From contig JBKPAC010000100.1 of assembly GCA_046726175.1 (NCBI GenBank), positions 4,202 to 68,201 of the forward strand: 64,000 nt of DNA, given 5' to 3'. Under the pieces are notes generated by a model. The model made no database searches. It was given only the letters and a program-made list of their open reading frames with translations, and was not told where the DNA came from. Numbering within the stretch: the stretch's first letter is position 1; each line of letters starts with the position of its first letter. This document shows, piece after piece, positions 13,246-39,240 of this stretch. A program made the translations under genes and the position numbers. The stretch comes from Acidobacteriota bacterium (lineage in GTDB: Bacteria; Acidobacteriota; Blastocatellia; Pyrinomonadales; Pyrinomonadaceae).

Positions 13246-15033
13246 TCAATACACATACTTGTTCGCGGCGATCATCTCGTTGGCAATCACCTGGCGTGCG
13301 GCAATCGTATTCATCGGAGTTACTTTCGTGAAACGACGTAACGCGGCCAACAACGTTCGTAACTCATCTCCTTCTGCCATCGCCGCCAGCGTATTCTTTG
13401 CGTGTGCCTCGATTCGTTCGACCGCGTCGTTACAAAATACCCGAGTCATGTCGATATAACGTGCCGCCGCTGTTTCACCTTGTATCGACGCAATCTTCAA
13501 GGTTCGAAGAATTGCAGACTCCATCGCATACACATCCGTGATGATGTCCGCCACCCCCATCAGAATCTCCTGCTGATCCGCAAGTGCCATCATGTACTTC
13601 TGCGCCGCCGTGCCGAGTGTCATCAGCGCGACCTTTCTCGCGTTCTTTACAAGCTTCTGCTCGGTTGCGAGCAGGCTGTCATCATCATCGAACCCGGCCA
13701 TTTGCGGCGATAACACTTCATCCATCAAAGCTTGTGCAGCAGCTAATAACGGCAGTCGACCGCTCATCGCACTCTTCATCAGCCGGCCAGGTATCAACAT
13801 CCGATTGATCTCGTTAGTGCCTTCGAAAATGCGATTGATGCGCGAGTCGCGGTAGGCGCGTTCAGCAGGGTAATCAGCTGAGTAACCATAGCCGCCATAG
13901 ATCTGGACCATTTCGTCAGCGACGAAATTGCAGTACTCGGACAGTGCCACTTTAACAATCGAGCACTCCGCTGCATACTCTTCGATTGCCCGAAGCCGCG
14001 CGTCCATGTCCTTGCTGTCTCCGATGGCGCCGATTCCGGCCTCGATCATTCCCAAGGTGCGATAGATCATCGACTCGCCGACCCACGTGCGGATCGCCAT
14101 CTCACCGAGCTTCGCCTTAATAGCGCCAAAGGAAGAGATTGATTTGCCGAACTGATGACGCTCGTTCGCGTAACGCACCGACTCGTGGGTCATCAGTTTC
14201 ATTCCGCCGGTACACATCGCGCCGAGTTTGAAGCGACCAATGTTCAGAATGTTGAAAGCTATCTTGTGACCTTTACCTACTTCGCCGAGAAGGTTTTCAA
14301 CCGGCGTACGAACGTCGGAAAGGACCAGCGCCGTTGTACTCGAACCTTTGATCCCCATCTTGTGCTCTTCCGCACCGGAAGTAAGGCCTGGCTGACGTTC
14401 CACGATGAAAGCTGAGAACTTGTCGCCATCAACTTTTGCGAACACCACGAAGATGTCGGCGAAGCCGCCGTTCGTAATCCACATTTTCTCGCCGTTGAGG
14501 ACGTACTCCTTGCCATCGTTGCTGAGGCGCGCCGTAGCTTTCGCGGCCATTGCATCCGAGCCGGAGCCTGCCTCGGTCAGCGCGTAAGCGGTGATGAGTT
14601 CGCCTGTGGCGATACGCGGCAGGTATTTCTGTTTCGCAGCTTCGGTGCCAAAGTAGATGATAGGCAACAATCCGATGCCGCTTTCAGCTCCGAGCGTGGT
14701 AGCAAATGATGCCGAGCGACCGATGTTCTCACCTACTAGAGCTCCGCTCGTCTGGTCCAACCCCAGCCCGCCGTACTCTTCAGGGATGTTCGCGCCGATC
14801 AAGCCAAGATCCGCTGCCTTCTTGACCAGCTCACGCGCGAGTTTCCAGTCGTGATGTTCCAGCTCGTCGATTCGCGGAGAGACCTCGTAGTCGACGAATT
14901 GCCTGGTGGTATCGGCAATCATCAAATGCTCTTCCGTGAAATCCTCGGGAGTGAAGATCTCTTCCGGCGTACGCTCTTCGATCAGGAAAGCTCCGCCTTT
15001 AACGAGTTGTTTGGATTCGACTACGGCTGCCAT
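13246..15033 (-). CDS. Acyl-CoA dehydrogenase (long, FadE-like)
   Basis: 595 aa. LTEAGSGSD, WITNGG and QIYGGYGY motifs are typical of ACADs. Confidence 0.85.
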   Translation of the reverse strand: MAAVVESKQLVKGGAFLIEERTPEEIFTPEDFTEEHLMIADTTRQFVDYEVSPRIDELEHHDWKLARELVKKAADLGLIGANIPEEYGGLGLDQTSGALVGENIGRSASFATTLGAESGIGLLPIIYFGTEAAKQKYLPRIATGELITAYALTEAGSGSDAMAAKATARLSNDGKEYVLNGEKMWITNGGFADIFVVFAKVDGDKFSAFIVERQPGLTSGAEEHKMGIKGSSTTALVLSDVRTPVENLLGEVGKGHKIAFNILNIGRFKLGAMCTGGMKLMTHESVRYANERHQFGKSISSFGAIKAKLGEMAIRTWVGESMIYRTLGMIEAGIGAIGDSKDMDARLRAIEEYAAECSIVKVALSEYCNFVADEMVQIYGGYGYSADYPAERAYRDSRINRIFEGTNEINRMLIPGRLMKSAMSGRLPLLAAAQALMDEVLSPQMAGFDDDDSLLATEQKLVKNARKVALMTLGTAAQKYMMALADQQEILMGVADIITDVYAMESAILRTLKIASIQGETAAARYIDMTRVFCNDAVERIEAHAKNTLAAMAEGDELRTLLAALRRFTKVTPMNTIAARQVIANEMIAANKYVY

Positions 15034-15065
15034 AAAACTGATCCTTTCTCAGTGTGTGGTGAAGT

Positions 15066-16244
15066 TTAAATTCGCTCGAAAATTCCTGCCGCCCCCATGC
15101 CACCGCCAACGCACATCGTCACCATTCCGTAGCGGCCATTACGGCGTTCGAGCTCGCGCAGAATGCTCGCAGTTAACTTCGCTCCGGTACAACCAAGCGG
15201 ATGGCCCAGCGCTATCGCGCCCCCGTTTACATTGACCTTATCCGGATCGAGCCCGAGCGTCTTGATCACCGCGAGAGACTGTGCTGCGAAAGCTTCATTC
15301 AATTCGATCACATCAATGTCGTCGAGTGTCAGGCCGGCCAGCTTCAGCACTTTCGGAATGGCATAGACTGGTCCAATACCCATCTCCTCAGGAGGGCAAC
15401 CTGCGGTCGCGTAGGCAACGAAGCGTGCCATCGGTTTTGCTCCCAGCTCTTTGGCGCGAGCGTCTGACATAACCACCGCCGCCGCAGCGCCGTCCGACAT
15501 CTGTGAGGCGTTACCGGCCGTAATTGTTCCCTTCAGCTGAAAGGCAGGCTTCAGTCCGGCGAGCCCCTCGAGAGTACTGTCGCGCCTGACTCCTTCATCT
15601 TTGTCAAAAACAATCTCGCGGTGCTGTTTGCGCCCGCGCGCATCAAGCTCCTCGACGGTTACCGTAAATGGTACCGTCTCGTCCTTGAACTTATCCGCGT
15701 CCAATGCTGCAGCAGCTCTCTGGTGAGAACGCAAAGCGAACTGGTCCTGCTCTTCACGACTAACCTGGTATTTGCGCGCAACATTTTCAGTTGCCAGGCC
15801 CATGCTCAAATAGAAGTCGGGATAATGCTCAACGAGATATGGGTTGGGGCGAATGATGTGACCGCCCATCGGGATCATCGACATCGATTCCAGTCCGCCG
15901 GCGACAATGACCTCGGCGCCGCCACCTCTTATCCGATCCGCAGCCATGGCAATCGACTGCAGACCTGAAGAGCAGAAGCGATTAATGGTCATTGCGCTCG
16001 TTTCGACAGGCAGACCTGCTCGAATCGCAGCAGCTCGGGCGACGTTCATCCCCTGTTCTGCTTCAGGCATGGCGCATCCCATGATCACATCATCTACGTG
16101 TGAGCCTTCAAGACCAGGAACACGCGCGATCGCTTCTTTGATTACCGCGGCGCCGGTTTCATCAGGTCTCGTATTCTTAAGCGTTCCCTTGGGCGCTTTG
16201 CCGACAGCCGTCCTCACCGCCGACACAACTACTGCATCTCTCAT
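15066..16244 (-). CDS. Acetyl-CoA C-acyltransferase (thiolase)
   Basis: NRFCSSGLQ contains the active-site Cys. [22 protein letters not shown] and CVGGGMG motifs are present. Confidence 0.9.
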
Positions 16245-16267
16245 TTCTCAACTCCAATCACAATCTT

Positions 16268-16372
16268 TGCCGCGGATTCACGCGGATTAAACGCAGATCA
16301 GAAAACGTAAATCCGTTCACAGTCATTTGTTTTCTTTTTAGATCCGTTTTATCTGCGTTCATCTGTGGCTAA
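16268..16372. repeat. Inverted-repeat hairpin, GCCGCGGATTAACGCGGAT family (copy 3, degenerate right arm), inside the beta-oxidation operon
   Basis: gccgcggattcacgcggattaaacgcagatcag ... agatccgttttatctgcgttcatctgtggc. Confidence 0.8.
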
Positions 16373-16381
16373 ATCTCTTCC

Positions 16382-18793
16382 TCAATTCCTTAATGGCTTA
16401 CCGGTTTTCAACATGTGCGCTATTCGCTCCTGGGTCTTCCTCTGACCAACGAGACTCAGAAACGCTTCGCGCTCGAGGTCCAGAAGATACTGTTCCGATA
16501 CTCGCGTTTGATGATTGAGATCTCCTCCGGTCAACACGCGAGCCAGTCGCGTGCCGATCTCCGCATCATAATCTGAAATGTACCCCGCGCGTTTCATCTG
16601 ATGAATTCCGAGCTTCAACGTTGATAACGCCGGCATTCCGAGCGCGAGAATGTCTGTTCGCTGTTGTGGCTGCACGTAACCCCTCGCGGCCAGGGCCAAA
16701 ACCTCTTTCTTTGCGTCGGCGATCAGTCGATCCGTGTTCATCGAGATCGTATCGTCCTCATTGAGGAATCCAAGTGATCGAGCTTCCTCGGCGGACGTCG
16801 CTACCTTCGCCAGAGCGATCGTCTCAAACGCGCGCTTCACGAATGGGAATGGATCGGCATCGGACATATTTGGCGGAATAGAATCGAGAGCTCGCACCAG
16901 CATCTCTTTCGTACCTCCGCCTGCAGGGATGATCCCGACGCCTACTTCGACTAACCCGACATAGGTTTCCGCAGCCGCTCGCACGCGATCGGCGTGCAAC
17001 ACCATCTCGCACCCGCCGCCAAACACCATTTGAAAAGGAGCGACCACAACCGGCTTCGGCGAATAACGCAAGCTCATGATGGATGCCTGAAAAGCTCGGC
17101 CCATCATGTCCAACTCGTCCCAATTTTCGTCCTGGGCTTCCATCAGCATCAACATGAGATTTGCGCCGACGGAAAAGTTTGCACCCTGGTTCCCGACCAC
17201 TAATCCGACAAAGTTCTTCTCCACTTCTGCGAGCGCAAACTTCAGCATCTGCAGCTGGTCGCCGCCGATAGCGTTCATTTTCGAATGCCACTCGAGGCAT
17301 GCGACTCCATCGCCAATATCGATCAAAGACGCTCCGGGATTCTTCTTGATGACTCCCGTTCGCTCCTTCACTGACTTTAGAATCGTCACACCCAGCGGGT
17401 CGGCCAGCGGAAGATATTTGCCACTGGCAAAATCGAAGTAAAACTGCTGTCCGGTTTCCTTCTTGTAGAACGAAGTGGCGCCCGTCGCGAGCATGTTTTC
17501 GACATTGGTTGGAACGGGCTGGCCTTCATCCTTCATTCGCGCCACGGACTTCGCAACACCGATGACATCCCAGGCCTCGAATGGTCCAAGTTCCCAACCA
17601 AAACCCCAACGCAATGCGCGATCAACTTCCACGACCGTATCGGAGATCTCAGGAATTCGATTCGCAGCATAGGAGGCCGTTCGTGAGAACGTTTTCCAAA
17701 GAAAAGCACCGACGCGGTCCTTGGCCCAGACAAGCGTCTTGATCCGCTCTCCGGTGTCCTCGATGTTTTTCGCCACATCGAGTGATGGCAGCTTCACTTT
17801 TTGCGATGCACGATATTCGAGAGTCGCCGGGTCAAGAACGAGATACTCCCTCTTATCGCCCTCGCCTTTTTGCTTCTGGTAAAAACCGCCCTTGGTTTTG
17901 TTACCGAGAATGCCGCGCTCGACCATCTTCTGAAGAAACTCGGGAGCGACGAACATCTCGCGCTCTTCGTCTTCAGGAAGGGCTTCGTAGAGATTCTTGA
18001 TGACGTGAGAAAAGACATCCAAACCCACGATGTCGAACGTGCGGAACGTCGCGCTCTTTTGACGGCCCAGGACCGGCCCCGTCAATTTGTCGACTTCTTC
18101 GATCAAGTAACCGTCTTCCAGCATTGTCTTGATTGTGTGCAGAGCGCCGAAGGTGCCGATGCGATTCGCGATGAAGTTAGGTCGATCCTTTGCTGCTACG
18201 ACCCCTTTTCCAAGTCGCTGATCGAGAAAGCCATACACGAAGCAGGAAACTTCGGGCTTCGTCCAATCGGTCCGGATAATTTCGACGAGATGCAGGTAGC
18301 GTGGTGGATTGAAAAAGTGCACGCCCAGGAAGTGCTGGCGGAAATCCTCGGACATTCCTTCAGCCAGGAATCGAATCGGTATGCCGCTAGTGTTGGAAGC
18401 GATAATCGTTCCCGGCCGGCGATGTTTTTCGACTCGTTGATAGAGACTGCGCTTGATTTCGAGGTTTTCAACGACTGCTTCGATTATCAGGTCGCAGTCT
18501 TTGAGTTTTGGAAGATCGTCATCGAAGTTGCCGATCGTCACGAGCAAGGCGAGTTCCGGGGTAAAGAACGCTGCCGGTTTGGCTTTTTTGGCAGCGTCGA
18601 GACCGGCTTGCGCAATGCGATTGCGAACTGCCGGAGATTCAAGCGTCAGTCCTTTGGCCTGCTCGGCTGGAGTCAATTCACGGGGTGGAATATCGAGCAG
18701 AAGAGTAGGGATTCGGGCATTAGCAAGGTGGGCGGCTATTTGTGCACCCATGGTTCCCGCTCCGAGTACGGCTGCTCGTTCGATACGCATCAT
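16382..18793 (-). CDS. Bifunctional 3-hydroxyacyl-CoA dehydrogenase / enoyl-CoA hydratase
   Basis: Start set at ATG 18793 (MMRIERAAVLGAGTMGAQIA, a Rossmann fold) with AAAGGTGAG upstream. The C-terminal half has crotonase-like segments (GGGCEMVLHAD). Confidence 0.85.
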   Translation of the reverse strand: MMRIERAAVLGAGTMGAQIAAHLANARIPTLLLDIPPRELTPAEQAKGLTLESPAVRNRIAQAGLDAAKKAKPAAFFTPELALLVTIGNFDDDLPKLKDCDLIIEAVVENLEIKRSLYQRVEKHRRPGTIIASNTSGIPIRFLAEGMSEDFRQHFLGVHFFNPPRYLHLVEIIRTDWTKPEVSCFVYGFLDQRLGKGVVAAKDRPNFIANRIGTFGALHTIKTMLEDGYLIEEVDKLTGPVLGRQKSATFRTFDIVGLDVFSHVIKNLYEALPEDEEREMFVAPEFLQKMVERGILGNKTKGGFYQKQKGEGDKREYLVLDPATLEYRASQKVKLPSLDVAKNIEDTGERIKTLVWAKDRVGAFLWKTFSRTASYAANRIPEISDTVVEVDRALRWGFGWELGPFEAWDVIGVAKSVARMKDEGQPVPTNVENMLATGATSFYKKETGQQFYFDFASGKYLPLADPLGVTILKSVKERTGVIKKNPGASLIDIGDGVACLEWHSKMNAIGGDQLQMLKFALAEVEKNFVGLVVGNQGANFSVGANLMLMLMEAQDENWDELDMMGRAFQASIMSLRYSPKPVVVAPFQMVFGGGCEMVLHADRVRAAAETYVGLVEVGVGIIPAGGGTKEMLVRALDSIPPNMSDADPFPFVKRAFETIALAKVATSAEEARSLGFLNEDDTISMNTDRLIADAKKEVLALAARGYVQPQQRTDILALGMPALSTLKLGIHQMKRAGYISDYDAEIGTRLARVLTGGDLNHQTRVSEQYLLDLEREAFLSLVGQRKTQERIAHMLKTGKPLRN

Positions 18794-18841
18794 TCGGTTT
18801 GCTGACTCACCTTTCTTTCGGGGACACTGCGGGGCGGTCAA

Positions 18842-18997: not shown

Positions 18998-21001
18998 ATG
19001 ATGAAACCGAATCGTATTCTGCCGCTCATAATCGTCTTCCTATTCGTCGTTTCTTCCGTACTCGGACAAGGGCAGCAGCCGCTGACGCCGCAACAGCAGG
19101 CAGTCGCTGATTTCATCAAGGCGAATTACACCAAACGCGAAGTGATGATCCCGATGCGCGATGGCGTCAAGCTCTTCACCGCTATCTACACGCCTCGCGA
19201 CACCTCTCAGAAGTATCCGATTCTGCTCAACCGAACACCGTACAGCGTCGGACCATACGGCGAAGACAAGTTCAAGAACCTCATCGGACCGAATGAGCTT
19301 TTTCCTGAAGAGCGATACATCTTCGCTTACCAGGATGTGCGCGGCAGGTACATGAGTGAAGGCACCTTTGAAGATGTTCGACCTTACATTCCAAACAAGA
19401 CCGCAAAGCAGACCGACGAGATCAGCGATTCGTACGATACGGTCGATTGGCTAATCAAGAATGTGCCCAACAACAACGGCCGCGTCGGAGCTTACGGCAT
19501 TTCGTATCCTGGTTTTTACACGTCCGTAGTCGGAATCGATGGCCATCCGGCAGTAAAAGCAATCTCGCCACAGGCGCCCGTTTCCGATTGGTTCCACGGC
19601 GACGACGATCATCACAACGGCGCTTTATTTCTTGCGCAGAACTTTTCCTTCTTCAGGGGTTTCGGTCAGCTGCGCCCGACACCAACATCAAAGGATGATT
19701 ACGTAAAACCATTCAGCTTCGGAACACAGGATGGCTATGACTTCTATTTGAAAGCCGGTGGATTGAAAAACCTTGGCGATCTCTATGAGAAGCAGTTTGG
19801 ATTTCGAATCAAGTTCTGGGACCAGATGATGACCCATCCCAATTACGATCAGTTCTGGAAAGAGCGCAACATCCTTCCCAACCTAAGGAATATAAAAGCG
19901 GCAGTGATGACCGTCGGTGGCTGGTATGACAATGAAGACTTGTACGGAGCATTGAAGACTTACGAGCACATCGAAGCTCAGAATCCCGGCATCTACAACG
20001 TGCTCGTGATGGGGCCTTGGTTCCACGGTGGCTGGGCACGTTCAGACGGCGATTGGCTCGGCACAGCATATTTCGGAAGCAAGACTTCGCTTTTTTATCG
20101 GGACAAATTTGAGCTGGCGTTCTTCAATCATTTCCTGAAGGACAAAGGAGAGATACCTCAAATCAAGGAAGTTAATGCGTTCGACACGGGCTCGCTCGAG
20201 TGGCGTGAGTTTGCTGACTGGTCGCCAAAAGCAGCTTCAGATACACCGCTCTACCTGCTTCCCGCCGGCAAGCTGTCGTTTTCAGTTCCTGTGAAACCTA
20301 ACGCGGCATACGATGAGTACGTCAGCGATCCGATGAATCCAGTTCCGTACACACAAAAGATCACGCTGAACTATCCGCGCGATTTCATGACAGAGGATCA
20401 GCGGTTCGTCAGCGGACGACCGGATGTTCTTGTTTATCAGACCGACCCATTAACTGAAGACATTACTGTTGCTGGTGCCATCAAACCCGAGTTGTTTATT
20501 GCATCGACGGGAACAGATTCCGACTTCATCGTGAAGTTGATCGATGTCTTCCCTGATGATTACCAATATCCGGAAACGGGAAATCGCTTGCCGAATGGCC
20601 AAGCGGAAAGGATGCGGCCTCCAGATACGTCTGCTGATTGCGTATTTCAGCCGGGCGGTTATCAAATGCTGCTACGCGGCGAGCCATTCCCGGCACGCTT
20701 CCGCAATAGCTTCGAAAAACCCGAGCCGCTGAAAGTCAATACGCCGATGAAGATACCGTACGTCATGCCGGGAATCGTTCACACCTTTAAGAAGGGCCAC
20801 CGGATCATGGTCCAGGTCCAGAGCACCTGGTTCCCATTGGTTGCTCGTAATCCCCAAAAGTATTTGTCGAATTACAAATTGGGAACGGACGCGGATTTTC
20901 AGAAAGCTACGCAACGCGTATATCACAGCTCCACCAACGCATCGCGCATCGTGTTGCCGATCGTAAGGAACAGGAACGAGAGCACAAGCCAGAAGCAATA
21001 A
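18998..21001 (+). CDS. CocE/NonD-family hydrolase (S15 Xaa-Pro dipeptidyl-peptidase-like), secreted
   Basis: Signal peptide is present. YGISYPG fits the GxSxxG nucleophile elbow. Length and C-terminal domain pattern are typical of the family. Confidence 0.8.
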   Translation: MMKPNRILPLIIVFLFVVSSVLGQGQQPLTPQQQAVADFIKANYTKREVMIPMRDGVKLFTAIYTPRDTSQKYPILLNRTPYSVGPYGEDKFKNLIGPNELFPEERYIFAYQDVRGRYMSEGTFEDVRPYIPNKTAKQTDEISDSYDTVDWLIKNVPNNNGRVGAYGISYPGFYTSVVGIDGHPAVKAISPQAPVSDWFHGDDDHHNGALFLAQNFSFFRGFGQLRPTPTSKDDYVKPFSFGTQDGYDFYLKAGGLKNLGDLYEKQFGFRIKFWDQMMTHPNYDQFWKERNILPNLRNIKAAVMTVGGWYDNEDLYGALKTYEHIEAQNPGIYNVLVMGPWFHGGWARSDGDWLGTAYFGSKTSLFYRDKFELAFFNHFLKDKGEIPQIKEVNAFDTGSLEWREFADWSPKAASDTPLYLLPAGKLSFSVPVKPNAAYDEYVSDPMNPVPYTQKITLNYPRDFMTEDQRFVSGRPDVLVYQTDPLTEDITVAGAIKPELFIASTGTDSDFIVKLIDVFPDDYQYPETGNRLPNGQAERMRPPDTSADCVFQPGGYQMLLRGEPFPARFRNSFEKPEPLKVNTPMKIPYVMPGIVHTFKKGHRIMVQVQSTWFPLVARNPQKYLSNYKLGTDADFQKATQRVYHSSTNASRIVLPIVRNRNESTSQKQ

Positions 21002-21016
21002 GAGAGGAGGAACACT

Positions 21017-22153
21017 GTGTTTAGATACACAGCAATTGCGGCGCTGATCTTCGTTTGTGCGTGTGTTGCGACAGGAAAGGATTCAAGCTCCGTGCTCATC
21101 TATGATGGCGTTGCGACGCAGGTTACGCCCTGGCCGGCAAAGACCGCTGACCTATGGATTTTGACGACGGATCTGAAGCGCGCCACCGGGTATGAGATCA
21201 AGCCGCAAGGCGTGTGTCGAGGTCAGTTGTGTTTTCCACTTCCGAAAAACCGACAGCAGGAATTCGTTTCGAAGGCGAAGGGAACGACCTGGTTCAATGT
21301 CTCGGAATTTGCGAGACTCATAAAACAACCGTTCACAACGGATCAGAAAAACGCGATTTGGTATTTTGGTCCCCGGTCAGAAGAATCGAACGCGTTTGTG
21401 TCCTCACTTGAAGCTCCAAACTTCACATTGCCTGACCTAAGCGGGAAGATGCACTCGCTTAGCGACTTCCGCGGAAAGAAAGTCTTACTTGTCACCTGGG
21501 CCTCTTGGTGAGGCTGTCGCTTTGATCTGCCTGGATGGCAGTCACTCTACAAAGAACTGAAAAATAAAAACCTGGAAATCATCTCCGTAGCTGAAGACAC
21601 TGGCGGTGTCCGCGATGCTGAGAAATGGATAACGGCAGCGAAGCCTGAGTACACAGCTCTCATCGACGAAAAACAGATCATCACGCAAAAGTACAACATG
21701 GTAAATGTGCCTACGGCAGTATGGATCGACGAGCGTGGCCGGATCGTGCGTCCTGCCGAAGTGGCTTTTGTCGACGATCGCTTTAAGTCGTTTACGAATA
21801 TCGAGTCTGCTCCATACATTGATGCCATACGTGATTGGACAACGAAAGGGCAGGCCAGTAAGTATGTGATGAGCGAAAATCAGCTAAGAGAGCACATGAA
21901 ACCGCAAAGCACAGAGCGTGGGATGGCAGATGTGGAATTTGGGCTTGCGGAATATTTGTACAAACAAGGAAAGGGTACGGATGCTATTCCTCACTTCAAA
22001 GAGGCCCAGCGACTTGCACCTGACAATTGGAATTACAAACGTCAAGCCTGGGCATTGTCGGATGCAGAGCGTGACTACGGTACGAACTTCCGGAAGGAAG
22101 TGGAGAAGCTAAACGGTAAGCCCTACTACGAACCGCGCAAGTTGCCGCAGTAG
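21017..22153 (+). CDS. TlpA/redoxin-like thiol:disulfide oxidoreductase with in-frame TGA (candidate selenocysteine, W-U-G-C) and TPR-like tail
   Basis: The two ORF-track pieces (21017-21511 and 21698-22153) are in the same frame. The only stop between them is TGA 21509-21511. The read-through gives KKVLLVTWASW-U-GCRFDLPGWQSLYKELKNKNLEIISV...VPTAVWIDERGRIV, a canonical TlpA/ResA-type pattern with TGA at the first Cys of WCxxC. Confidence 0.65.
21523..21544 (+). promoter_or_regulatory. Candidate bacterial SECIS hairpin
   Basis: UGA-(U bulge)-CUGCC-[UGGAU]-GGCAG-UCA is an 8-bp stem with a 5'-side bulged U and a GG-containing loop. It starts 11 nt after the UGA codon. Confidence 0.5.
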
Positions 22154-23219: not shown

Positions 23220-23888
23220 ATGAATCCGTCACGACTGATCTCCCATCGTCTTGTTCTCGGGCTGGCGATATCTTTTTGCGTCGGCTTCGCGGCCCTCGTG
23301 GTGGCAGCGCAATCGGGAAGGCGAACACCGAAGAAACCGGATCCAATTCCCGAAGCGTCACCTGAGCCCTCTCCTTCAGTAAAGCCAGAGACGGAGAAGC
23401 CGCGTGTAAACATCAGTGTTGGAATCGCCCCTACAGGCGGCTTTTCAAATTTGCCTGTGTACTACAACGACTCTGTCCTTGTAAGCTGCGCCGAGCGCTT
23501 GCGCAGCGCCCCATCCGCAGCAGTGCACGTGACTGGCCGGGAGATCACTCGTGGCCAAGCGATCAAACTTGCGAAATCGCAAAAGGAAGGCTTCGTTGTT
23601 TTTCTTGAATTGAAAAACGACAACATGAGCGCCACTGTCGCGAATCCAAACTATCAGGATCTTTATCTGGATTACACGGTGTTTGGACCGGACACGGCAA
23701 AGGTGGTGACTTCAGGCAAAACCTATCCGCGAGCTTACAGCAAGGGCAGTGTTATTGCGCTTCCGACAGGCAGAAACTCGTCGGCGTATGTAGAGCAAAT
23801 GCTGCAACAGGCAGCCCGGGATGCTGCGGATCGCATTCTATCGGCGCTCCACCTCGTACTGCCGAGGACTACAGCTCCTGGACCTTGA
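23220..23888 (+). CDS. Hypothetical exported protein
   Basis: An N-terminal TM/signal segment is followed by a Pro/Glu/Lys-rich linker. I recognised no motif. Confidence 0.5.
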   Translation: MNPSRLISHRLVLGLAISFCVGFAALVVAAQSGRRTPKKPDPIPEASPEPSPSVKPETEKPRVNISVGIAPTGGFSNLPVYYNDSVLVSCAERLRSAPSAAVHVTGREITRGQAIKLAKSQKEGFVVFLELKNDNMSATVANPNYQDLYLDYTVFGPDTAKVVTSGKTYPRAYSKGSVIALPTGRNSSAYVEQMLQQAARDAADRILSALHLVLPRTTAPGP

Positions 23889-28597: not shown

Positions 28598-31500
28598 CTA
28601 CTGTCGCGAGCGACCGCTTGAGAGGCGTCGATAGTATTCCTCGACGGCCTTGCGATAACGCTCGGGAGCAGCACCTTCATCACGCAGTCGCAGGTTAGTC
28701 TGACCCCTTTGCTGCAATTGCCTGCTTAACTCCAACTCGAGCTGGCGCAGCGGCTCAATCACGTTAGCTTTCAACGCCGCCGCTGTTAATGCGTCACCTT
28801 CCATTCGTCCGTCGGCGAACCGTCTTAATTGCTCGACCACGTCTCCCAGCCGGCCCACTGGTCCACCCGGACCCCAATCGCGACGTAAATTCTCCGCTTC
28901 ACGCAAACGCTCGCGAAGCTCAGATGAGAGCTGCCGTTTGTCATCCCAGTTGCCGTCTGGTCCCCACTGGCCACCTGTTCGTTCCTGGCCACCTTGAGAC
29001 TGTCCGGTTTGGGGCTGTCCACCTTGAGAGCCGCTTTGTTGTGTTTGCGATTGTTGTCCGGTCTGCGAGCTTTGGCCCTGCTGCCGACTCTGAGAATCAG
29101 ATTGTTGTTGCCCAGCCTGCTGGCCATTCTGACCGCGACGAGCATTGCTCTCGTCCAAACGCCGCCGAAGCGAATCAAGGTTATCAGCGAGTTGGCGCGT
29201 GCGATCGAGAGCATCTTCAGCGCCAGACGCTCCGGCACGACGAGAATTCTGCTCCGCCGACTGCAGACGTTCTGAAAGATCATTCAGGCTACGTTCGATC
29301 GCACGTTCGTTTGAACGGGCTGAGTCGAGCTGATTGTTGTTGAGTGCTTGTTTGCTTTCTCGTATTCGATCCGCAATACGATCACGGGACAGGTTACCCG
29401 CTGCTTCGGACAGTTGTCGCGCCAATCTTTGTTGCCCGGCACTCATTCCTTGAGCTGACTGTTCGAGGTCCTGTTGTAAACCACTGACGGTGTCGGCGAG
29501 TGCATCCTTGCGTTCGGCAATTTGATCTTTCAGTTTCTGTCCGTTTGCGTTTTGACTATTCTGAGCTCCGCGCCGAGCCATGTTCTCCACGTCGTTTGCA
29601 ATTGCGCGCTGGCGAGCTGCGGCTTGTGCCGCTCGCTGACGCAGCTCGCTGACGGATTGAGAGCCTCCACCCTGAGAGGACTGACCGGACGAGCTACCAC
29701 TCTGTTGTAGACGGTTTTGCGCCTGACGCAGCCGCTCGAGCGCTTTTTCGTTCTGGGCAATAGCATCGCTTGAGTTAGTACGCGCCGAAGCCTGTGCCTT
29801 CTGCATTTCGTCTGCGGTTTGATTCAGTTGGCGGCTTACATCCTGCAGTTGCTGATCACGGCGCTCGCGCGACAGCCGCTCGAGTTCTCGAGCCGCTCGT
29901 CGCGTCTCATCGATCAACTCCTGCTGTTGACGGCTAGCTCCGCCGCTAGAACTGTTGCGAGGTCCTTGCTGTCGTCGGCGCTGTTCCTCAAGCGCTTGTT
30001 CCTGCCGGCGTGCCAGTTCTTCCAATTTGCGTTCAGCTTCACTCTTTTCGCGTTGTGCCTGCTGTCGTTGCGCTCGCTGCACGGTCTCGTACTGGTTCTT
30101 CATCTTGTCGAGCTCAAGCTCGAACAAACCAGCAAGCTCCTGCGACTGTTGTTCACTACCGCCACTACTGCCGTTATTCTGATTACCAAACGCCACTTGG
30201 ACTTCGCGAAAGATCGCATCAGCGGCGAGCAGCCTTTGCAAAGCGCGCTGTTCGGAGGGCAAAGCTTCCTTTCCGGCTTCCTTACGCAAGGGAGGGGGAG
30301 CGCCTTCCATTTCACGCGCAGCCTGTTTGAGATGCTCGGCCATTTCGGCCAGCTCTTTTTGTCCTTCGATCTGTTCGCCCAGCCGGCGACCCATTCGATC
30401 GAGAAACTCCAGGGTATCGGTTCGCAGCTTCTCCTGACCGGCGGCTACGGCTTCATAGTCGTCTTTACGTTCCTGCGGCGTGTATTTGTCGCTCTCGCGG
30501 ATTAAACGGTGAGTTGCAGCAATCAAGTCTTTTTGTCGCCGCGATAATGCGTTCTGATCCTGATCGCCTCCCTGACCCTGACCACCCTGCTGCTGCGACT
30601 GCCGGTACTGCATCTCGAAAGGCTTAATCTCGATGAAATAGATATCACTTGTTGTTTCGCTGCTAGCATCCCGAGCTTTCGCGTAGTAGGAGATGAAGTC
30701 GCCAGGTTTCAGTTTGAACTCTTCGAGAAAGAAAGTATGCGTTCCCGTTAGCACTTGCGCCGATTCGCGGCTCAGCTCCTGAAGGCTTAGCTGTTTCTCA
30801 GCGCCGCCATTGACTGAGAAATGAAGATCGATTGAGACGACGCCAAAATCATCTTCTGCACGGACCTGTGTAAAAACTTCTTCGAGGTTAGTTGCTTTCT
30901 TGTCTCTGCCCGGCCGCTCAATTGAAACTGACGGCGGCTGGTCCGTAAGTACCGTAATGTCATACTCATTTGACCCGCGATACGCTTCGCCATCCAGGCT
31001 TACGAGCTCGATGTAGTAACTCGTGTCAGCCGCAACAGTTACTTCCCCGGAAAAGTTCGCGCCCGCAGGCTTCATGTCGATCTTCCGACCATCGGCCAAC
31101 ACCATTCGCGCCGCGCGTACTTTCCCGGTAAGGTGGGCTGTCACTACGGCAACTGTTCCCTTAATTGCTGCGATATCGCCGCCGTCTTCAATAGTTTTGG
31201 AAGGAAGGCGGGTGAAAGAGGGAAAGTTGAGTACAAGATCGAGTTGTTTTACATACGGCAGATCAACAACAGTGAGCTTAAAGACATCAGAGCGGACGTT
31301 GTTTGATTCAATGAAGTACTCGAGCGAATCCTGAATGTTGAAGATCGAAAAGCGGAAATCACTGCGTGCTTTCGCAGGCTCCATCGTTTGTCCCTGCCAA
31401 TCGTCTTTTGAGCCGGCAGGGCGTGAGAAGATAGTCACCATCTGCGAATCAAAGTTGACGAGAGTTGCAAGGATGTCCTGATCGGAACTCTTCGGAACGC

Positions 31501-32104
31501 GTGCGGTACCCGGCCGCACTTTGATACTCATCGTATTTGTAGACGCCGCCAGAGTAGTTGGCGCAACCAGACGCGCTACACCTTCAGAGATCTCACGTGG
31601 CCCCCACTTAAGGACTGCCGCAAAAATCAACAAGCTCAGCAATGCCGCGCCACCGTAAGCGAGTAATCGAGATCGTTTGATTACATTTCCAAGGTTGAGA
31701 GAAGCCGCAACATCGTTTGCGTCGGAGTTGAGGTGATTAAGAATCGCCGGCGAGATTCCCCGGTGTCGATCGTGTGCGAATTCGACAGCCGCGACGAGGC
31801 GATCGTCCGTACCGGGCGAGCGTTCTTCGATGAGCCGAGCGAGACGCGCGTCGCTGATCCGCTGCCAAAGGGGTCGAATGAATGCGAAGTACACAGTAGC
31901 CAGAAAACCGGCAACAGCGGTGATGCGCAGTGCCAGCAAAGCTGTGGGGTTGAATCGGTAACGATGCGCGGCCCAGCCGGTCAGCAACAGAGTGCCGGCT
32001 ATGACACACAGGCAGGCAGCGGTTCCACGCAGGGCCAGGAGGAGTTGTCGTCGCTTGCGCGCGCGACTGAGCAGGTTGCGCAGGTTGTTACTTTCGGCAT
32101 CCAT
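28598..32104 (-). CDS. Large membrane-anchored protein (DUF4175-like N-terminus) with a very long Q/R/E/S-rich coiled-coil or low-complexity C-terminal half
   Basis: 1168 aa. There are two N-terminal TM helices. The C-terminal roughly 650 aa include QQSDSQSRQQGQSSQTGQQSQTQQSGSQGGQPQTGQSQGGQ. Confidence 0.7.
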   Translation of the reverse strand: MDAESNNLRNLLSRARKRRQLLLALRGTAACLCVIAGTLLLTGWAAHRYRFNPTALLALRITAVAGFLATVYFAFIRPLWQRISDARLARLIEERSPGTDDRLVAAVEFAHDRHRGISPAILNHLNSDANDVAASLNLGNVIKRSRLLAYGGAALLSLLIFAAVLKWGPREISEGVARLVAPTTLAASTNTMSIKVRPGTARVPKSSDQDILATLVNFDSQMVTIFSRPAGSKDDWQGQTMEPAKARSDFRFSIFNIQDSLEYFIESNNVRSDVFKLTVVDLPYVKQLDLVLNFPSFTRLPSKTIEDGGDIAAIKGTVAVVTAHLTGKVRAARMVLADGRKIDMKPAGANFSGEVTVAADTSYYIELVSLDGEAYRGSNEYDITVLTDQPPSVSIERPGRDKKATNLEEVFTQVRAEDDFGVVSIDLHFSVNGGAEKQLSLQELSRESAQVLTGTHTFFLEEFKLKPGDFISYYAKARDASSETTSDIYFIEIKPFEMQYRQSQQQGGQGQGGDQDQNALSRRQKDLIAATHRLIRESDKYTPQERKDDYEAVAAGQEKLRTDTLEFLDRMGRRLGEQIEGQKELAEMAEHLKQAAREMEGAPPPLRKEAGKEALPSEQRALQRLLAADAIFREVQVAFGNQNNGSSGGSEQQSQELAGLFELELDKMKNQYETVQRAQRQQAQREKSEAERKLEELARRQEQALEEQRRRQQGPRNSSSGGASRQQQELIDETRRAARELERLSRERRDQQLQDVSRQLNQTADEMQKAQASARTNSSDAIAQNEKALERLRQAQNRLQQSGSSSGQSSQGGGSQSVSELRQRAAQAAARQRAIANDVENMARRGAQNSQNANGQKLKDQIAERKDALADTVSGLQQDLEQSAQGMSAGQQRLARQLSEAAGNLSRDRIADRIRESKQALNNNQLDSARSNERAIERSLNDLSERLQSAEQNSRRAGASGAEDALDRTRQLADNLDSLRRRLDESNARRGQNGQQAGQQQSDSQSRQQGQSSQTGQQSQTQQSGSQGGQPQTGQSQGGQERTGGQWGPDGNWDDKRQLSSELRERLREAENLRRDWGPGGPVGRLGDVVEQLRRFADGRMEGDALTAAALKANVIEPLRQLELELSRQLQQRGQTNLRLRDEGAAPERYRKAVEEYYRRLSSGRSRQ

Positions 32105-32122
32105 TTCTGCCCTCTCTTAAAC

Positions 32123-32193
32123 ACTGGGAGCGCGGGCGTCTCGCCCGCCTATGCTATTCAAGATCAACGAAGCGGGCGAAACGCCCTCCCAGC
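32123..32193. repeat. Hairpin, GGGAGCGCGGGCGTCTCGCCCGC family (copy 2)
   Basis: actgggagcgcgggcgtctcgcccgc ... gcgggcgaaacgccctcccagc. Confidence 0.8.
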
Positions 32194-32196
32194 AGA

Positions 32197-34245
32197 TCAG
32201 CTAACCATTTTCGCCACTCTCGTACGATGAGATAACAGTGATTCAGTCACCAACAGTAAGAGAGCGACGAAAAGCAAAGGCCACCAGATTTTCTGACGCG
32301 CTTCAATTTCTTCGTTGCTCTGTTTGTTTCCTGCCTCGAAACCTTGCGGTACCCCGCCTCCTCCAGTGACGCCCGCAACGAATTCTCCGAAATCCAACTT
32401 CGCGAAATCACCTTCCGACGAGTCGAGATCGACCGCAGTAAAGTCAGGACCAGCACTGTAACGCAGCCGGTAAAAGCCGGGCTCGCGTGCAGTGACCAAC
32501 AGCTCGCCGTCAGGCGTCAGCCGCTCCTCAGAAACTCTGCTGCCCGAAGGGGTGTCAACAGGTGGCGGTGGTCCTTGAGAATCCCTGGCTACCGTAAATG
32601 TTTGGCCGAGCCCGTACCACGAGTTGCTGTCACGCCCGCCAAGGTAGCGAACCATTTGATGGACCAACGGCAAATAAAGCGGAGTCAAAGGCAGATCATT
32701 CCAGCTCGCGCCGAGTGATGAAGTAAAGACAAGCACACGGCCCTTGCCGACGTTCGATTCAATCAATGCCGGGCTGCCATCTTCGTAACGGGCCAACACA
32801 GACGATGTGGCGCGCGGTTCAGAACGGAAGTAGCCGAAGACATGAGCTCCGGTTAACCGGCCTCCCTGACGAAACACCTCAAAGATCGGGTGGTCCAACT
32901 TAACTTCAGAGATAGCTACACTGTCTCCCTGCCGCGACTGCACCACATCGCGAAGCGCAGCTGGCGATAACAGCTGGAGCGATTTGTTGAATTCATCGGC
33001 TTCAGTCTTTGGCCCCGTCGCCATCAGCAACTGGCCACCTGCTTGTACGAATTGAGAAAGCTTCTCAGCGAATGAAGACGAGAGCTGACCAGCATCATTC
33101 AAAATGATCAATGCGTAATCGGAAAGTGACGCGGGATCTACACTGCCAGTCGTCTTCAACACAAATGCGAACGGAAGATCTTCATTCATGTTGAGAGCGT
33201 TTTGTAAGTAGATACTATCGCTGCGGCCTCGTGTGGCACCTTCGACGATCAGTGCCTTCGCTTGAGCGCTGCGGCGAATACTGAAATAAAAACGATTGTC
33301 CGGAGCGAAGTCACCCGAATTGATATCGATCGTGCAGCGATTCGCTCCGTCGCCGAGGTTGAAATCCGTAAACTCCACGACTTTCGTTTCACGGCTGCCC
33401 AGGTTCAAATCGCGTTTTGCCACTGTCTGATCGTTTATCTGGAAATCAAGCACCAGGTGGTCCCGCGGAGCGTCAGAGAAGTTGCTGACGTGAACCGCGA
33501 TGTTCTCGGTGTACTTCTGACCAAACACTGCCCGTCGAGCCTCGACGCGGGTCACAGCTACGTTTGGGGTTGGATCTTTTCCTGCTACGTCCAGGGTCAG
33601 CAGTTCAATGTCGCCGCTTAGTTTGAAAGAAGCGTTTGGTTGGTTCCAGCCACTCGCCTGAAAATCAGAGATCAGGATAATTTGACGCGGCCCACTGGTT
33701 TGCAGATCTCGAAACAGTGATTCAGCTCCTCGCAGCGCCTGTTCGTAGTCGGTACCTTCCCAGCCTGGTTGCACGCTTCCCACGACTGTTCGCAATCCGC
33801 TCTTATCTGAAGTGAAGCGACTGAGTATTTCGTAAGTCTTTCCAAAGCTGATCAGTGCAAGTCTATCGCCGGTGCCGGCTCCATCGATTAGTGACAGGGC
33901 TCGTTTTTGTGCTTCTGAAAAAAGATCGTTGCGGCGCATGCTAACCGAGTTATCGATCAGAATTACGCTTGCTCGAGAAGAGACGCTTTCCCTGGCAGCA
34001 CTACGTCCGTTGAAGAATGGTCGAGTGAAAGCGAGCACAATTAAGGTGATAGCCAGACAGCGAAGAATGAGCAGCAGGAGGTTTTGAAGTGTACGCCGGC
34101 GGATGGTGCGTTGCGGCACCTGTCTGACGAACACGAGCGCCGGAAACTCGACGCGTCGCGCCCGCGTTCTCCTGACAAGGTGCACCAATACCGGCGCGGC
34201 AAGAGCCGCGATTCCTAGTAAGAAAAGTGGACTCAGAAACGACAT
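32197..34245 (-). CDS. BatA-like protein (N-terminal double-TM aerotolerance-regulator domain plus VWA domain)
   Basis: MSFLSPLFLLGIAALAAPVLVHL is an N-terminal anchor typical of BatA/TIGR02226. ILIDNSVSM provides the DxSxS MIDAS motif. Confidence 0.75.
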   Translation of the reverse strand: MSFLSPLFLLGIAALAAPVLVHLVRRTRARRVEFPALVFVRQVPQRTIRRRTLQNLLLLILRCLAITLIVLAFTRPFFNGRSAARESVSSRASVILIDNSVSMRRNDLFSEAQKRALSLIDGAGTGDRLALISFGKTYEILSRFTSDKSGLRTVVGSVQPGWEGTDYEQALRGAESLFRDLQTSGPRQIILISDFQASGWNQPNASFKLSGDIELLTLDVAGKDPTPNVAVTRVEARRAVFGQKYTENIAVHVSNFSDAPRDHLVLDFQINDQTVAKRDLNLGSRETKVVEFTDFNLGDGANRCTIDINSGDFAPDNRFYFSIRRSAQAKALIVEGATRGRSDSIYLQNALNMNEDLPFAFVLKTTGSVDPASLSDYALIILNDAGQLSSSFAEKLSQFVQAGGQLLMATGPKTEADEFNKSLQLLSPAALRDVVQSRQGDSVAISEVKLDHPIFEVFRQGGRLTGAHVFGYFRSEPRATSSVLARYEDGSPALIESNVGKGRVLVFTSSLGASWNDLPLTPLYLPLVHQMVRYLGGRDSNSWYGLGQTFTVARDSQGPPPPVDTPSGSRVSEERLTPDGELLVTAREPGFYRLRYSAGPDFTAVDLDSSEGDFAKLDFGEFVAGVTGGGGVPQGFEAGNKQSNEEIEARQKIWWPLLFVALLLLVTESLLSHRTRVAKMVS

Positions 34246-34251
34246 GGGATA

Positions 34252-34377
34252 TTAGCCGCGGATTAACGCGGATAAAACGCGGATCAGACGATAATTAGCT
34301 AAGTGTTGAATGCGTTTCTCTCCTTCAGATCTGACTGGTTTCTCTCTCTTTCAGATTCGCGTTCAATCCGCGGCCAA
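34252..34377. repeat. Inverted-repeat hairpin, GCCGCGGATTAACGCGGAT family (copy 6)
   Basis: ttagccgcggattaacgcggataaaacgcggatcagacg ... cagattcgcgttcaatccgcggccaa. Confidence 0.85.
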
Positions 34378-34383
34378 TTGTTC

Positions 34384-35352: not shown

Positions 35353-35417
35353 CTATTTATTATTTGTCGTTTGACATTTCTCATTTCCCATTTGGTCGAA
35401 ATGGCAAATGGAAAATG
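35353..35417. repeat. TTTGACATTTCTCATTTCCCATTT element plus short complementary arm (hairpin)
   Basis: ctatttattatttgtcgtttgacatttctcatttcccattt ggtcg aaatggcaaatggaaaatg. Confidence 0.8.
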
Positions 35418-35423
35418 CTTTCC

Positions 35424-39187: not shown

Positions 39188-39240
39188 CTTTTCTCCACTA
39201 TCCACGAAACTACACGAAAATTAGTGTAATTTCGTGGATC
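39108..39240. repeat. Two adjacent CACGAA-word hairpins; the first overlaps the 5' end of the TPR-peptidase ORF
   Basis: tccacgaactaacacgaaatc pairs with gatttcgtgttttttagtggat (39108-39183). atccacgaaactacacgaaaattagtgtaatttcgtggat spans 39200-39240. Confidence 0.75.

Follow-up and report, generated by a model that had tools for sequence, protein, structure and literature searches.

The gene at 21017-22153 does contain an in-frame TGA, which almost certainly specifies selenocysteine (Sec) at the active site of a ResA/TlpA-like redox protein predicted to be exported. Our reading of the gene, to which we assign a probability of about 0.9, is that it specifies a probably exported, periplasmic thiol-disulfide oxidoreductase of the ResA/TlpA type, belonging to the catalogued WAxxUGC selenoprotein family, with its UGA read as Sec via a SECIS element. 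The family is already known, and the gene, correctly spotted in a preliminary description of the sequence, is an ordinary member of it. By the window we mean the whole 64-kb stretch of DNA that was analysed; the features discussed below are collected in the table.

The preliminary description had noticed that two open reading frames, 21017-21511 and 21698-22153, share one frame and are separated by a TGA at 21509-21511, and re-translation gave the same result, with this TGA (codon 165) as the sole internal stop. The protein around it reads ...KKVLLVTWASW-[TGA]-GCRFDLPGWQ..., in which the W-A-x-x-U-G-C motif of the NCBIfam model NF041054 appears as W161-A-S-W-[TGA]-G-C167, the U being the in-frame TGA. 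A scan of the window for other genes with an in-frame TGA returned no second candidate selenoprotein, and a promoter and terminator scan gave nothing above shuffle expectation.

Features of the selenoprotein gene and its product (positions in the window; aa, residue numbers)
Feature	Position	Strand	Basis or remark
Shine-Dalgarno-like GAGGAGG	21004..21010	+	6 nt 5' of the GTG start; direct sequence reading
Selenoprotein gene, complete	21017..22153	+	378 codons, GTG start, TAG stop, 1 internal TGA
Predicted signal peptide, ~aa 1-20	21017..21076	+	Arg3, then hydrophobic core; lipobox-like VCAC in this sequence only
N-domain, aa 25-118	21089..21370	+	without Pfam model or PDB fold match; within the NF041054 profile
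Invariant C-x4-C (C67-R-G-Q-L-C72) in the N-domain	21215..21232	+	C67 and C72 invariant
Thioredoxin-fold ResA/TlpA-like domain, aa 130-262	21404..21802	+	Pfam, PDB sequence matches, Foldseek
Sec codon UGA, residue 165, site of the N-terminal nucleophilic Cys	21509..21511	+	TGA in 80/80 orthologues, TGC/TGT in Cys forms, alignment to ResA
U-G-C redox centre (UxC)	21509..21517	+	one residue shorter than CxxC; HMMER alignment to 4nmu
SECIS hairpin, as folded in the window sequence	21523..21544	+	3 bp, bulged U21526, 5 bp, loop UGGAU (21532-21536); -9.7 kcal/mol
Conserved SECIS core	21526..21542	+	6 aligned pairs, 21526/21542 being U.U in the window; RNAalifold consensus
Conserved Pro232 (VNVPT)	21710..21712	+	invariant; aligned with the cis-Pro of the ResA fold (...lPTSFLID)
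C-terminal all-helical TPR-like tail	21806..22150	+	sub-gathering TPR matches; AF2 helices

The TGA lies inside a recognizable redox domain. The Pfam models AhpC-TSA (7e-19, 68.4 bits) and Redoxin (1.4e-13, 51.3 bits) both score over gathering and span residues 132-247, across the TGA, and sequence matches in the PDB to ResA (3.6e-15), TlpA and DsbE place the U opposite the first Cys. The TGA therefore does fall at the N-terminal redox Cys site, as originally proposed, aligning with the first Cys of the ResA WCxPC. AF2 models were available for the Cys orthologue P0001 and for the N-terminal half of the window protein, and with the former Foldseek retrieved ResA/DsbE structures at a TMt of 0.74-0.83 and a probability of 1.00. 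The preliminary description had also recognized a WCxxC redoxin pattern, of which the TlpA/ResA/redoxin fold stands, while the centre proves to be UxC, one residue short of CxxC: the HMMER alignment to ResA 4nmu contains a one-residue gap (WCG-C vs WCKPC), and in place of a canonical C-x-x-C active site there is U-G-C here and C-x-C in the Cys forms. C167 is invariant. Scores against the ResA/TlpA equivalog models lie far under their cut-offs (75 vs 170; 49 vs 230).

An 81-sequence set was built from the window gene and 80 orthologous loci, each from a genome of a different Acidobacteriota species. These loci span Blastocatellia, Pyrinomonadaceae, Acidiferrales and Terriglobia from soil and sediment genomes, and the Sec form is present in all 80 retrieved, with the TGA at the identical codon in every one. 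No locus has an in-frame stop within the 50 codons beyond the TGA, and the entropies of the three codon positions are 0.39 / 0.29 / 1.27 on its 3' side vs 0.48 / 0.29 / 1.19 on its 5' side, with third-codon-position variation equal either side. More distant full-length homologues (P0001, P0002, P0074, P0086, P0088, P0092 and P0110) have Cys opposite the TGA, encoded by TGC or TGT where the DNA was retrieved (P0001, P0002, P0074, P0086 and P0088, in loci L081-L086). In a survey of clusters, 34 Cys-form clusters carry CxC behind W-[AGS]-[ST]-W, mostly as W-A-S-W-C-x-C-R, and 20 N-terminal fragments terminate precisely at WxxW. Two checks suggested at the outset thus came out in favour of the proposal, namely that homologues are not truncated at this point, the TGA being followed by an open, conserved frame in 80/80 loci, and that Cys homologues carry TGC or TGT opposite it.

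The hairpin UGA(U)CUGCC-UGGAU-GGCAG-UCA, which starts 11 nt 3' of the TGA and has an energy of -9.7 kcal/mol when folded alone, had been put forward as a SECIS element, and this identification is upheld by its agreement with the bacterial SECIS (bSECIS) criteria and by a stem that is conserved with synonymous compensation. The published criteria (PMC13188914) comprise a loop of 3-9 nt, a stem of 4-16 bp, a G among the first two nucleotides of the loop, a distance of 16-37 nt between UGA and loop and an MFE <= -7.5 kcal/mol; the hairpin falls within all of them, with a loop of 5 nt, a stem of 5 bp plus 3 bp, a G at loop position 2, a UGA-loop distance of 20 nt and the energy given above. Across the 81 sequences, the region from +12 to +38 reaches an MFE <= -7.5 in 61. 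The fold energy of the single sequence is ordinary compared with shuffles (z = -1.06), so support for the hairpin comes from comparison across sequences. RNAalifold independently recovered the core stem 21526-21531 / 21537-21542 from the 81 sequences, with 97% of it paired, a value reached by none of 500 shuffles. The pair 21527-21541 is C-G in 49 sequences, U-A in 30, and C.A and U.G in 1 each; it has undergone ~12 independent joint C-G/U-A switches on an NJ tree, and its mutual information (MI) of 0.79 is the second highest among all column pairs. Each switch from C-G to U-A takes two synonymous changes, Leu CUG/UUG and Gln CAG/CAA. Variation on both sides occurs in only 2 of the 6 core pairs, and just two pairs covary.

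The stem consists of the codons of a conserved peptide, L-P-G-W-Q, which is found in the Cys forms too, so that much of the pairing potential is imposed by the protein. Gly is replaced by Val in two Sec-form loci, with the loop G-U kept; the loop of one Cys form reads G-C, and a C.A mismatch occurs at the covarying pair in 2 of 5 Cys forms. The preliminary description likened the hairpin to the E. coli fdhF SECIS, and this is borne out in part: the bulged U, the GG loop and the 11-nt spacing are present here, but the bulged U is not kept in the orthologues. The bulged U21526 and the 3-bp lower stem (21523-21525 / 21542-21544) are confined to this sequence and a few relatives, and the corresponding position is mostly paired elsewhere (U-A in 47, C-G in 15). 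No Rfam SECIS family was matched at gathering level in the whole window, nor permissively in 21480-21600; the Rfam snoRNA and lncRNA matches that did appear were set aside as chance.

Three other explanations of the TGA deserve consideration. Gene callers annotate the locus as if the TGA were a genuine stop, which would make it either a pseudogene or a pair of genes, the first for an N-terminal protein of 164 aa and the second, restarted downstream, for the C-terminal part. C-terminal fragments of 205-220 aa number in the hundreds in public databases, which also contain N-terminal pieces finishing ...WASW, and TGA is a normal terminator in this genome, closing 14 of the 36 other Pfam-supported genes in the window. 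However, such a stop would split the thioredoxin fold right at the catalytic Cys and leave neither half functional, and all 80 species keep the arrangement with purifying selection in frame straight after the TGA. The earliest in-frame ATG, GTG or TTG lies 62 codons on, at 21698, yet conservation begins with the codon right after the TGA, and the Cys forms are single full-length proteins. On these sequence comparisons, the 80/80 TGA, the Cys forms and the frame conservation effectively refute a genuine stop, and we consider it very improbable. A sequencing or assembly error would require a change of only one base from TGC or TGT, in a window that probably derives from a metagenome assembly. 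The probability of such an error is negligible against the identical TGA in 80 assemblies of other species and its recurrence in a Logan assembly of run SRR35145553, which is 100% identical to 20798-21734 and may come from the same sample.

The UGA might also be decoded as Cys or another standard amino acid by an opal suppressor resembling tRNA(Sec), namely a tRNA-Cys of the selC* type, or by an allo-tRNA of the acidobacterial kind; the protein would then contain no selenium. Possible nonsense suppressors, the 8/4 or 9/3 tRNAs, have been reported in Acidobacteria, as has a SelC* tRNA-Cys mimicking tRNA(Sec) in deltaproteobacteria (PMC5389517). The Sec machinery was, moreover, not seen in the 64-kb window: ARAGORN found no tRNA there, tRNA-Sec included, and Pfam or NCBIfam scans found no SelA, SelB or SelD among its ~40 largest ORFs, in agreement with the earlier statement that the window lacks sel genes. 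The 80 loci likewise gave no tRNA-Sec with ARAGORN, the single tRNA recovered being a tRNA-Val. Set against this, the TGA is kept in 80/80 species although a Cys codon is one mutation away and is used by distant homologues; selection has held TGA over TGC/TGT throughout, and a Cys product is therefore hard to square with the data. The hairpin also conforms to the SelB-type SECIS model, curation treats the family as selenoproteins, and selenoproteins are on record from Acidobacteria (PMC1794560). We accordingly regard decoding as a standard amino acid as improbable and retain Sec as the residue encoded at codon 165.

If Sec is inserted by the standard bacterial mechanism, the SECIS hairpin, with its apical loop N-G-G-N-U, would bind SelB loaded with Sec-tRNA(Sec), and SelB would bring this tRNA to the ribosome as a competitor of RF2. 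By homology, Sec165, at the site of the ResA/TlpA nucleophilic Cys, would attack a substrate disulfide to give a selenenylsulfide intermediate, which Cys167 would resolve by forming an intramolecular Se-S bond inside the U-G-C. A membrane electron donor, probably of the CcdA/DsbD type, would then return the oxidised centre to its reduced state; no such donor was seen in the window.

Export is predicted from the N-terminus, and the orthologues have AxA-type signal peptides. A lipobox follows the PROSITE-style pattern [LVI][ASTVI][GAS]C behind a signal peptide. A relaxed version of the pattern matched 1 of 81 sequences, the window's own F-V-C-A-C16, so the lipoprotein-like signal suggested initially is a property of this sequence, with its lipobox-like VCAC, and lipoprotein attachment was rejected as a family feature. 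The N-domain was modelled by AF2 with a pLDDT of ~90 or higher over most of the stretch (block means), and a Foldseek search of the PDB gave no significant match to its fold (best E = 0.32). Within it, all loci that cover the region have C-[RK]-x-x-[LA]-C-[FIVY]-P, which makes 80 of 81 sequences, L076 being cut there. The TPR-like tail of the preliminary description is all-helical in the AF2 model of P0001, with helices from ~residue 257 to 367; its matches to TPR_1 and TPR_2 (E ~8e-4, 19.7 bits) stay under the Pfam cut-offs of ~27-28 bits.

The gene neighbourhood is unconserved across the 80 loci. The neighbours in the window, encoding an S15 peptidase, FadB, an FNR-like protein and an AMP ligase, are not conserved beside the gene, the peptidase being shared with one locus only (L001), and the closeness of the peptidase gene, which lies 16 nt upstream, is thus no sign of a functional operon. 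An M16 pair in the window (58434-61339) was rejected as orthologous to the M16 genes flanking the gene in another clade, at 20-26% identity. In ~19 related genomes, about a quarter, the gene stands behind coxI-coxIII-coxIV on the same strand; cox genes were not found in the window. ScoI and CoxB are targets of TlpA, and the cox adjacency suggests that the protein may likewise help cytochrome oxidase (Sco/CuA) to mature, as TlpA does. A more specific proposal, which we offer as speculation and think unlikely, is that the N-domain could represent a novel module for redox chemistry or substrate docking that works with the unusual U-x-C selenosulfide centre, and that the Blastocatellia protein could be a dedicated reductant for the assembly of an aa3-type oxidase (Sco/CuA).

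The value of these observations lies mainly in annotation, because standard gene callers cut the gene at the Sec codon and, as a result, public sets hold 205-220-aa fragments named "TPR repeat protein" together with N-terminal stubs. The window gene ought to be annotated as a single 378-aa selenoprotein. That every one of the 80 retrieved species genomes has kept the Sec form implies that abundant soil and sediment Acidobacteriota depend on selenium. Functional work on the family could reasonably begin with the UxC centre, the N-domain or the cox linkage, none of which would surprise a selenoprotein specialist.

Family membership follows from the match to NF041054 (WAxxUGC_long), an equivalog defined as "ResA-like WAxxUGC motif-containing protein", at 320.4 bits vs a cut-off of 300 (E = 1.6e-95, with the query U replaced by C), residues 49-373 aligning to profile positions 9-351 of 354. 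The margin is only 20 bits over the cut-off, and planctomycete Cys forms score 291-325, about equal to the window gene, so that the model fails to split Sec from Cys forms. The family was published in 2008 as "Prx-like (UGC-containing)" and also appears in a 2026 review, with MDE0950781.1 as an example; it is commoner in non-marine samples. "WAxxUGC" and "NF041054" were not found as names in the literature searched, where the family goes under "UGC", and that literature contained no experimental demonstration of selenium incorporation for any member.

Compared with NF041054, the window gene has the same full-length match, the same W-A-x-x-U-G-C and the same three parts (N-domain, thioredoxin fold and helical tail), and differs in nothing of substance, its score being modest (320 vs 300). 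The architecture, called unusual in the preliminary description, is therefore the defined one of the family, in the literature since 2008. The pfam00578/TlpA-like thioredoxin fold, the UGC motif and the occurrence of Sec and Cys forms are shared with the published UGC-containing Prx/TlpA-like family, with which the long 380-aa form would be identical as judged by motif and domain. With the periplasmic CxxC thiol-disulfide oxidoreductases ResA, TlpA and CcmG (DsbE) (PDB 1st9, 4nmu, 1jfu, 4txo; cd02966, PF00578/PF08534) the protein shares the thioredoxin fold, the W before the nucleophile, the cis-Pro loop and a predicted exported location; unlike them, it has Sec for the first Cys in a UxC with one residue deleted, and adds a ~100-aa N-domain (C-x4-C) and a ~115-aa helical tail. 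Its SECIS resembles the bacterial consensus (bSECISearch) and that of E. coli fdhF in being a coding-region hairpin right after the UGA with a small G-G loop at the same 20-nt distance, whereas the fdhF bulged U is not conserved among its orthologues. SELENOF (Sep15) is described as a thioredoxin-like selenoprotein with a redox pair split by a single residue, C-G-U (PMC9304195), which parallels the one residue between Sec and Cys in U-G-C. The Sec/Cys order is reversed, however, and SELENOF is a eukaryotic, ER-resident protein with a 3'-UTR SECIS.

Translation of the candidate region gives 378 codons in one frame with a single internal stop, within the peptide KKVLLVTWASW-[TGA]-GCRFDLPGWQ. Each of the two open reading frames in the preliminary description is one half of this frame, and every coordinate there is correct. 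The next in-frame restart codon possible in the window lies 62 codons 3' of the TGA. TGA ends 14 of the 36 Pfam-supported genes in the window and is thus an ordinary stop in this genome, so a changed genetic code would not account for decoding at 21509, which must depend on a mechanism specific to that site. As had been stated, sel genes are absent from the 64-kb window (selA, selB, selC and selD were looked for).

Coordinates of the selenoprotein gene, its elements and an associated gene order (window positions unless a locus is named)
Feature	Position	Strand	Remark
Selenoprotein gene	21017-22153	+	GTG start, TAG end, internal TGA 21509-21511
Shine-Dalgarno-like GAGGAGG	6 nt before GTG start	+	read from sequence
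N-terminal domain	21089-21370 (about aa 25-118)	+	pLDDT about 90 or higher (AF2 model)
Invariant C-x4-C in N-terminal domain	21215-21232	+	conserved in every orthologue
Hairpin UGA(U)CUGCC-UGGAU-GGCAG-UCA	21523-21544	+	11 nt 3' of TGA
Conserved helix	21526-21531 with 21537-21542	+	RNAalifold consensus
coxI-coxIII-coxIV, then selenoprotein gene	L007 (orthologous locus) 439-2955, gene at 3001	same strand	

An orthologue scan with one genome per species (GTDB) gave 80 loci, all from Acidobacteriota MAGs (Pyrinomonadaceae, Blastocatellia, Acidiferrales and Terriglobia), at 57-81% best-segment amino-acid identity to the window protein. In 80/80 loci the TGA stands at exactly the codon that matches codon 165, in the context TWASW-TGA-GCR. 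Such conservation effectively excludes an assembly error as well as a genuine stop or a pseudogene, and window 20798-21734 has an identical counterpart in a Logan assembly, perhaps from the same sample, that agrees with the TGA. Truncation of homologues at the same point, raised earlier as a sign of a genuine stop, is not what the loci display, as the frame is open and conserved past the TGA in all 80, with a second in-frame stop within 50 codons 3' in none. Variability by codon position (0.39/0.29/1.27 bits after the TGA versus 0.48/0.29/1.19 before) is the same on both sides, indicating that purifying selection on the frame runs through the stop. More distant full-length homologues carry Cys opposite the TGA, encoded by TGC or TGT in the DNAs retrieved (L081-L086), as expected of Cys-containing orthologues; these are two proteins of about 60% identity and several from planctomycetes at 42-44%. 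A tRNA(Sec)-like suppressor that reads UGA as Cys has precedents elsewhere, and Acidobacteria have odd tRNAs resembling suppressors (PMC5389517), yet this would leave unexplained why every species keeps TGA instead of TGC or TGT, and we consider it very improbable.

In a library clustered at 50% identity, the family comprises 127 clusters at E <= 1e-30. Among the best 150 matches, 34 are Cys forms with CxC after W-[AGS]-[ST]-W (mostly W-A-S-W-C-x-C-R), and a further 20 are N-terminal pieces that stop exactly at W-x-x-W, the point where a gene caller cuts a selenocysteine (Sec) form short. Database entries P0004-P0120 and P0124-P0270 are mostly either C-terminal fragments of 205-220 aa, many of them under the name 'tetratricopeptide (TPR) repeat protein', or N-terminal stubs whose last residues are WASW, a systematic mis-annotation caused by the Sec codon. 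In one close homologue at 59% identity (P0003, GCA_009772195.1; L087 1499-1501), the Sec codon is replaced by TGG (Trp), a single-base difference from TGA, and the SECIS hairpin is intact; the change is either an error in base calling or an inactivating mutation of recent origin.

The hairpin described earlier is present at its reported place, and its single-sequence fold is unremarkable (z = -1.06), so that the evidence for it must be comparative. RNAalifold on 81 ungapped sequences (the window plus the 80 loci) returned one helix, +17..+22 with +28..+33 counted from the T of TGA, in which 97% of cells are paired versus 91.7% for shuffled partners (0/500 shuffles as high), while slid registers pair 26-70%. 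Three pairs are invariant, partly because codons for Leu, Pro, Trp and Gln in the conserved peptide LPGWQ make them up. At pair 21527-21541, 49 sequences have C-G, 30 have U-A, 1 has C.A and 1 has U.G; changes at either position are synonymous (Leu CUG/UUG, Gln CAG/CAA). A neighbour-joining tree of the downstream protein requires 12 changes at each position and 13 for the pair, so the two switch jointly about a dozen times. Their mutual information (MI) of 0.79 bit is exceeded only by two adjacent bases of one codon, and no other synonymous site correlates with either of them to a similar degree, which speaks against an artefact of GC content. One pair further out, 21526-21542 is U-A in 47, C-G in 15, G.U in 5 and mismatched in 14; in the window it is U.U, and a bulge plus three extra pairs are used instead. 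The bulged U, likened earlier to fdhF, is therefore a local solution that the family as a whole does not share.

Against the published criteria of a bacterial SECIS model (PMC13188914), the window hairpin agrees on 4/4; it has a loop of 5 nt with G at loop position 2, then G, a UGA-to-loop distance of 20 nt and an energy of -9.7 kcal/mol. Two Sec-form loci with Gly changed to Val keep G-U in the loop. Of the five different DNAs that encode Cys forms, two are mismatched (C.A) at 21527-21541 and one has G-C in the loop; the sample, though small, points in the expected direction. Loop positions 21532 and 21535 (+23 and +26, at the third position of the Pro and the Gly codon) also covary strongly (MI 0.74; A..A, C..G, A..C, U..A); they are too near each other to pair, and either shared ancestry or a preference in SelB contacts could underlie this.

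When the stop is replaced by Cys, residues 132-247, which straddle the TGA, match Pfam AhpC-TSA (7e-19) and Redoxin (1.4e-13), and TPR matches in the tail fall below threshold. NCBIfam NF041054 ("WAxxUGC_long, ResA-like WAxxUGC motif-containing protein"), an equivalog model, matches the full length at 320.4 bits versus a curated cut-off of 300, and W-A-S-W-U-G-C is the motif it names. By sequence, the protein is nearest among solved structures to ResA, TlpA, DsbE and related exported proteins with a thioredoxin fold. The redoxin-type active site proposed earlier holds in that the TGA aligns opposite their first, nucleophilic Cys, but a one-residue gap (WCG-C versus WCKPC) makes the redox centre UxC, not UxxC. 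The AlphaFold model of P0001, a Cys orthologue 61% identical, is confident (pLDDT 85.7), and its central domain superposes on ResA/DsbE with TM 0.74-0.83 relative to the target (Foldseek); TlpA-ScoI and TlpA-CoxB complexes are also among its structural matches. For the N-terminal domain, which is modelled with confidence, there is no Pfam model, and Foldseek gave no significant PDB match (best E = 0.32).

The conserved TGA, the Cys forms, the constrained hairpin and NF041054 bear out the selenoprotein reading of the preliminary description, and the gene is a routine, already known member of a catalogued family. "Prx-like (UGC-containing)" was listed as a selenoprotein family (pfam00578, motif UGC) by Zhang and Gladyshev (2008), with 46 Sec and 855 Cys sequences in GOS data, and was commoner in non-marine samples (PMC2398784), and the family is also covered in a review of 2026; its long form has a dedicated model in the NCBI annotation pipeline (NF041054). 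Selenocysteine use in Acidobacteria was reported in 2006 (PMC1794560). No experimental work on the family was found in the literature searched.

The gene neighbourhood is not conserved overall across the 80 loci. In about 19/80, coxI-coxIII-coxIV (aa3-type cytochrome oxidase) precede the gene on its own strand, as immediate neighbours in L007, L008, L009, L016, L033 and L079 and with cox upstream in about 13 more. This order fits, without proving, a part in the maturation of cytochrome oxidase like that of TlpA; cox genes are absent from the window. There, an S15-family peptidase gene ends 16 nt before the selenoprotein gene, an arrangement found in no other locus, the peptidase recurring only in L001, about 0.8 kb upstream. 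In another clade (L047, L048, L049, L050, L054, L060, L065, L067, L068, L073, L078 and others) the gene lies between two M16-family peptidase genes, followed by ferrochelatase (hemH); the M16 pair of the window (58434-61339) was rejected as orthologous to these at only 20-26% identity. MAGs titled 'uncultured Heliomicrobium sp.', 'Heliobacteriaceae' or 'Clostridia' (L023, L033, L042, L043, L048, L050, L053, L065, L067, L073, L079) carry the gene at 60-67% identity, nested among Acidobacteriota, some with the cox or M16 neighbourhood, and their taxonomic labels look wrong. Elsewhere in the window, a fatty-acid beta-oxidation cluster (13246-18841, -; acyl-CoA dehydrogenase, thiolase, FadB-like 3-hydroxyacyl-CoA dehydrogenase/enoyl-CoA hydratase) runs divergently to the peptidase-selenoprotein pair, and next to a BatA/VWA/DUF58/MoxR-AAA 'aerotolerance'-type operon (28598-36443, -) there follows a TPR plus peptidase-MA protein of 907 aa (36482-39205). 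Four sizeable ORFs lack an NCBIfam match: 43666-46731 (+, 1021 aa), 39266-40291 (-, 341 aa), 62803-63732 (-, 309 aa) and 23220-23888 (+, 222 aa); of these, the first, second and fourth were scanned with Pfam, also without a match.

The gene combines a conserved Sec codon and a constrained SECIS-type hairpin with Cys/Sec alternation at the ResA/TlpA nucleophile and a signal-peptide-like N-terminal segment common to all orthologues. SelB with Sec-tRNA(Sec) would bind the hairpin and insert Sec165, and the putatively exported protein may then reduce or isomerise substrate disulfides via a mixed selenenylsulfide, which Cys167 would resolve to leave a Se-S bond inside U-G-C. The centre would be regenerated by a CcdA/DsbD-type electron donor in the membrane, none of which is encoded in the window. 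The single-residue spacing of U-G-C recalls the CxU centre of eukaryotic SELENOF (PMC9304195).
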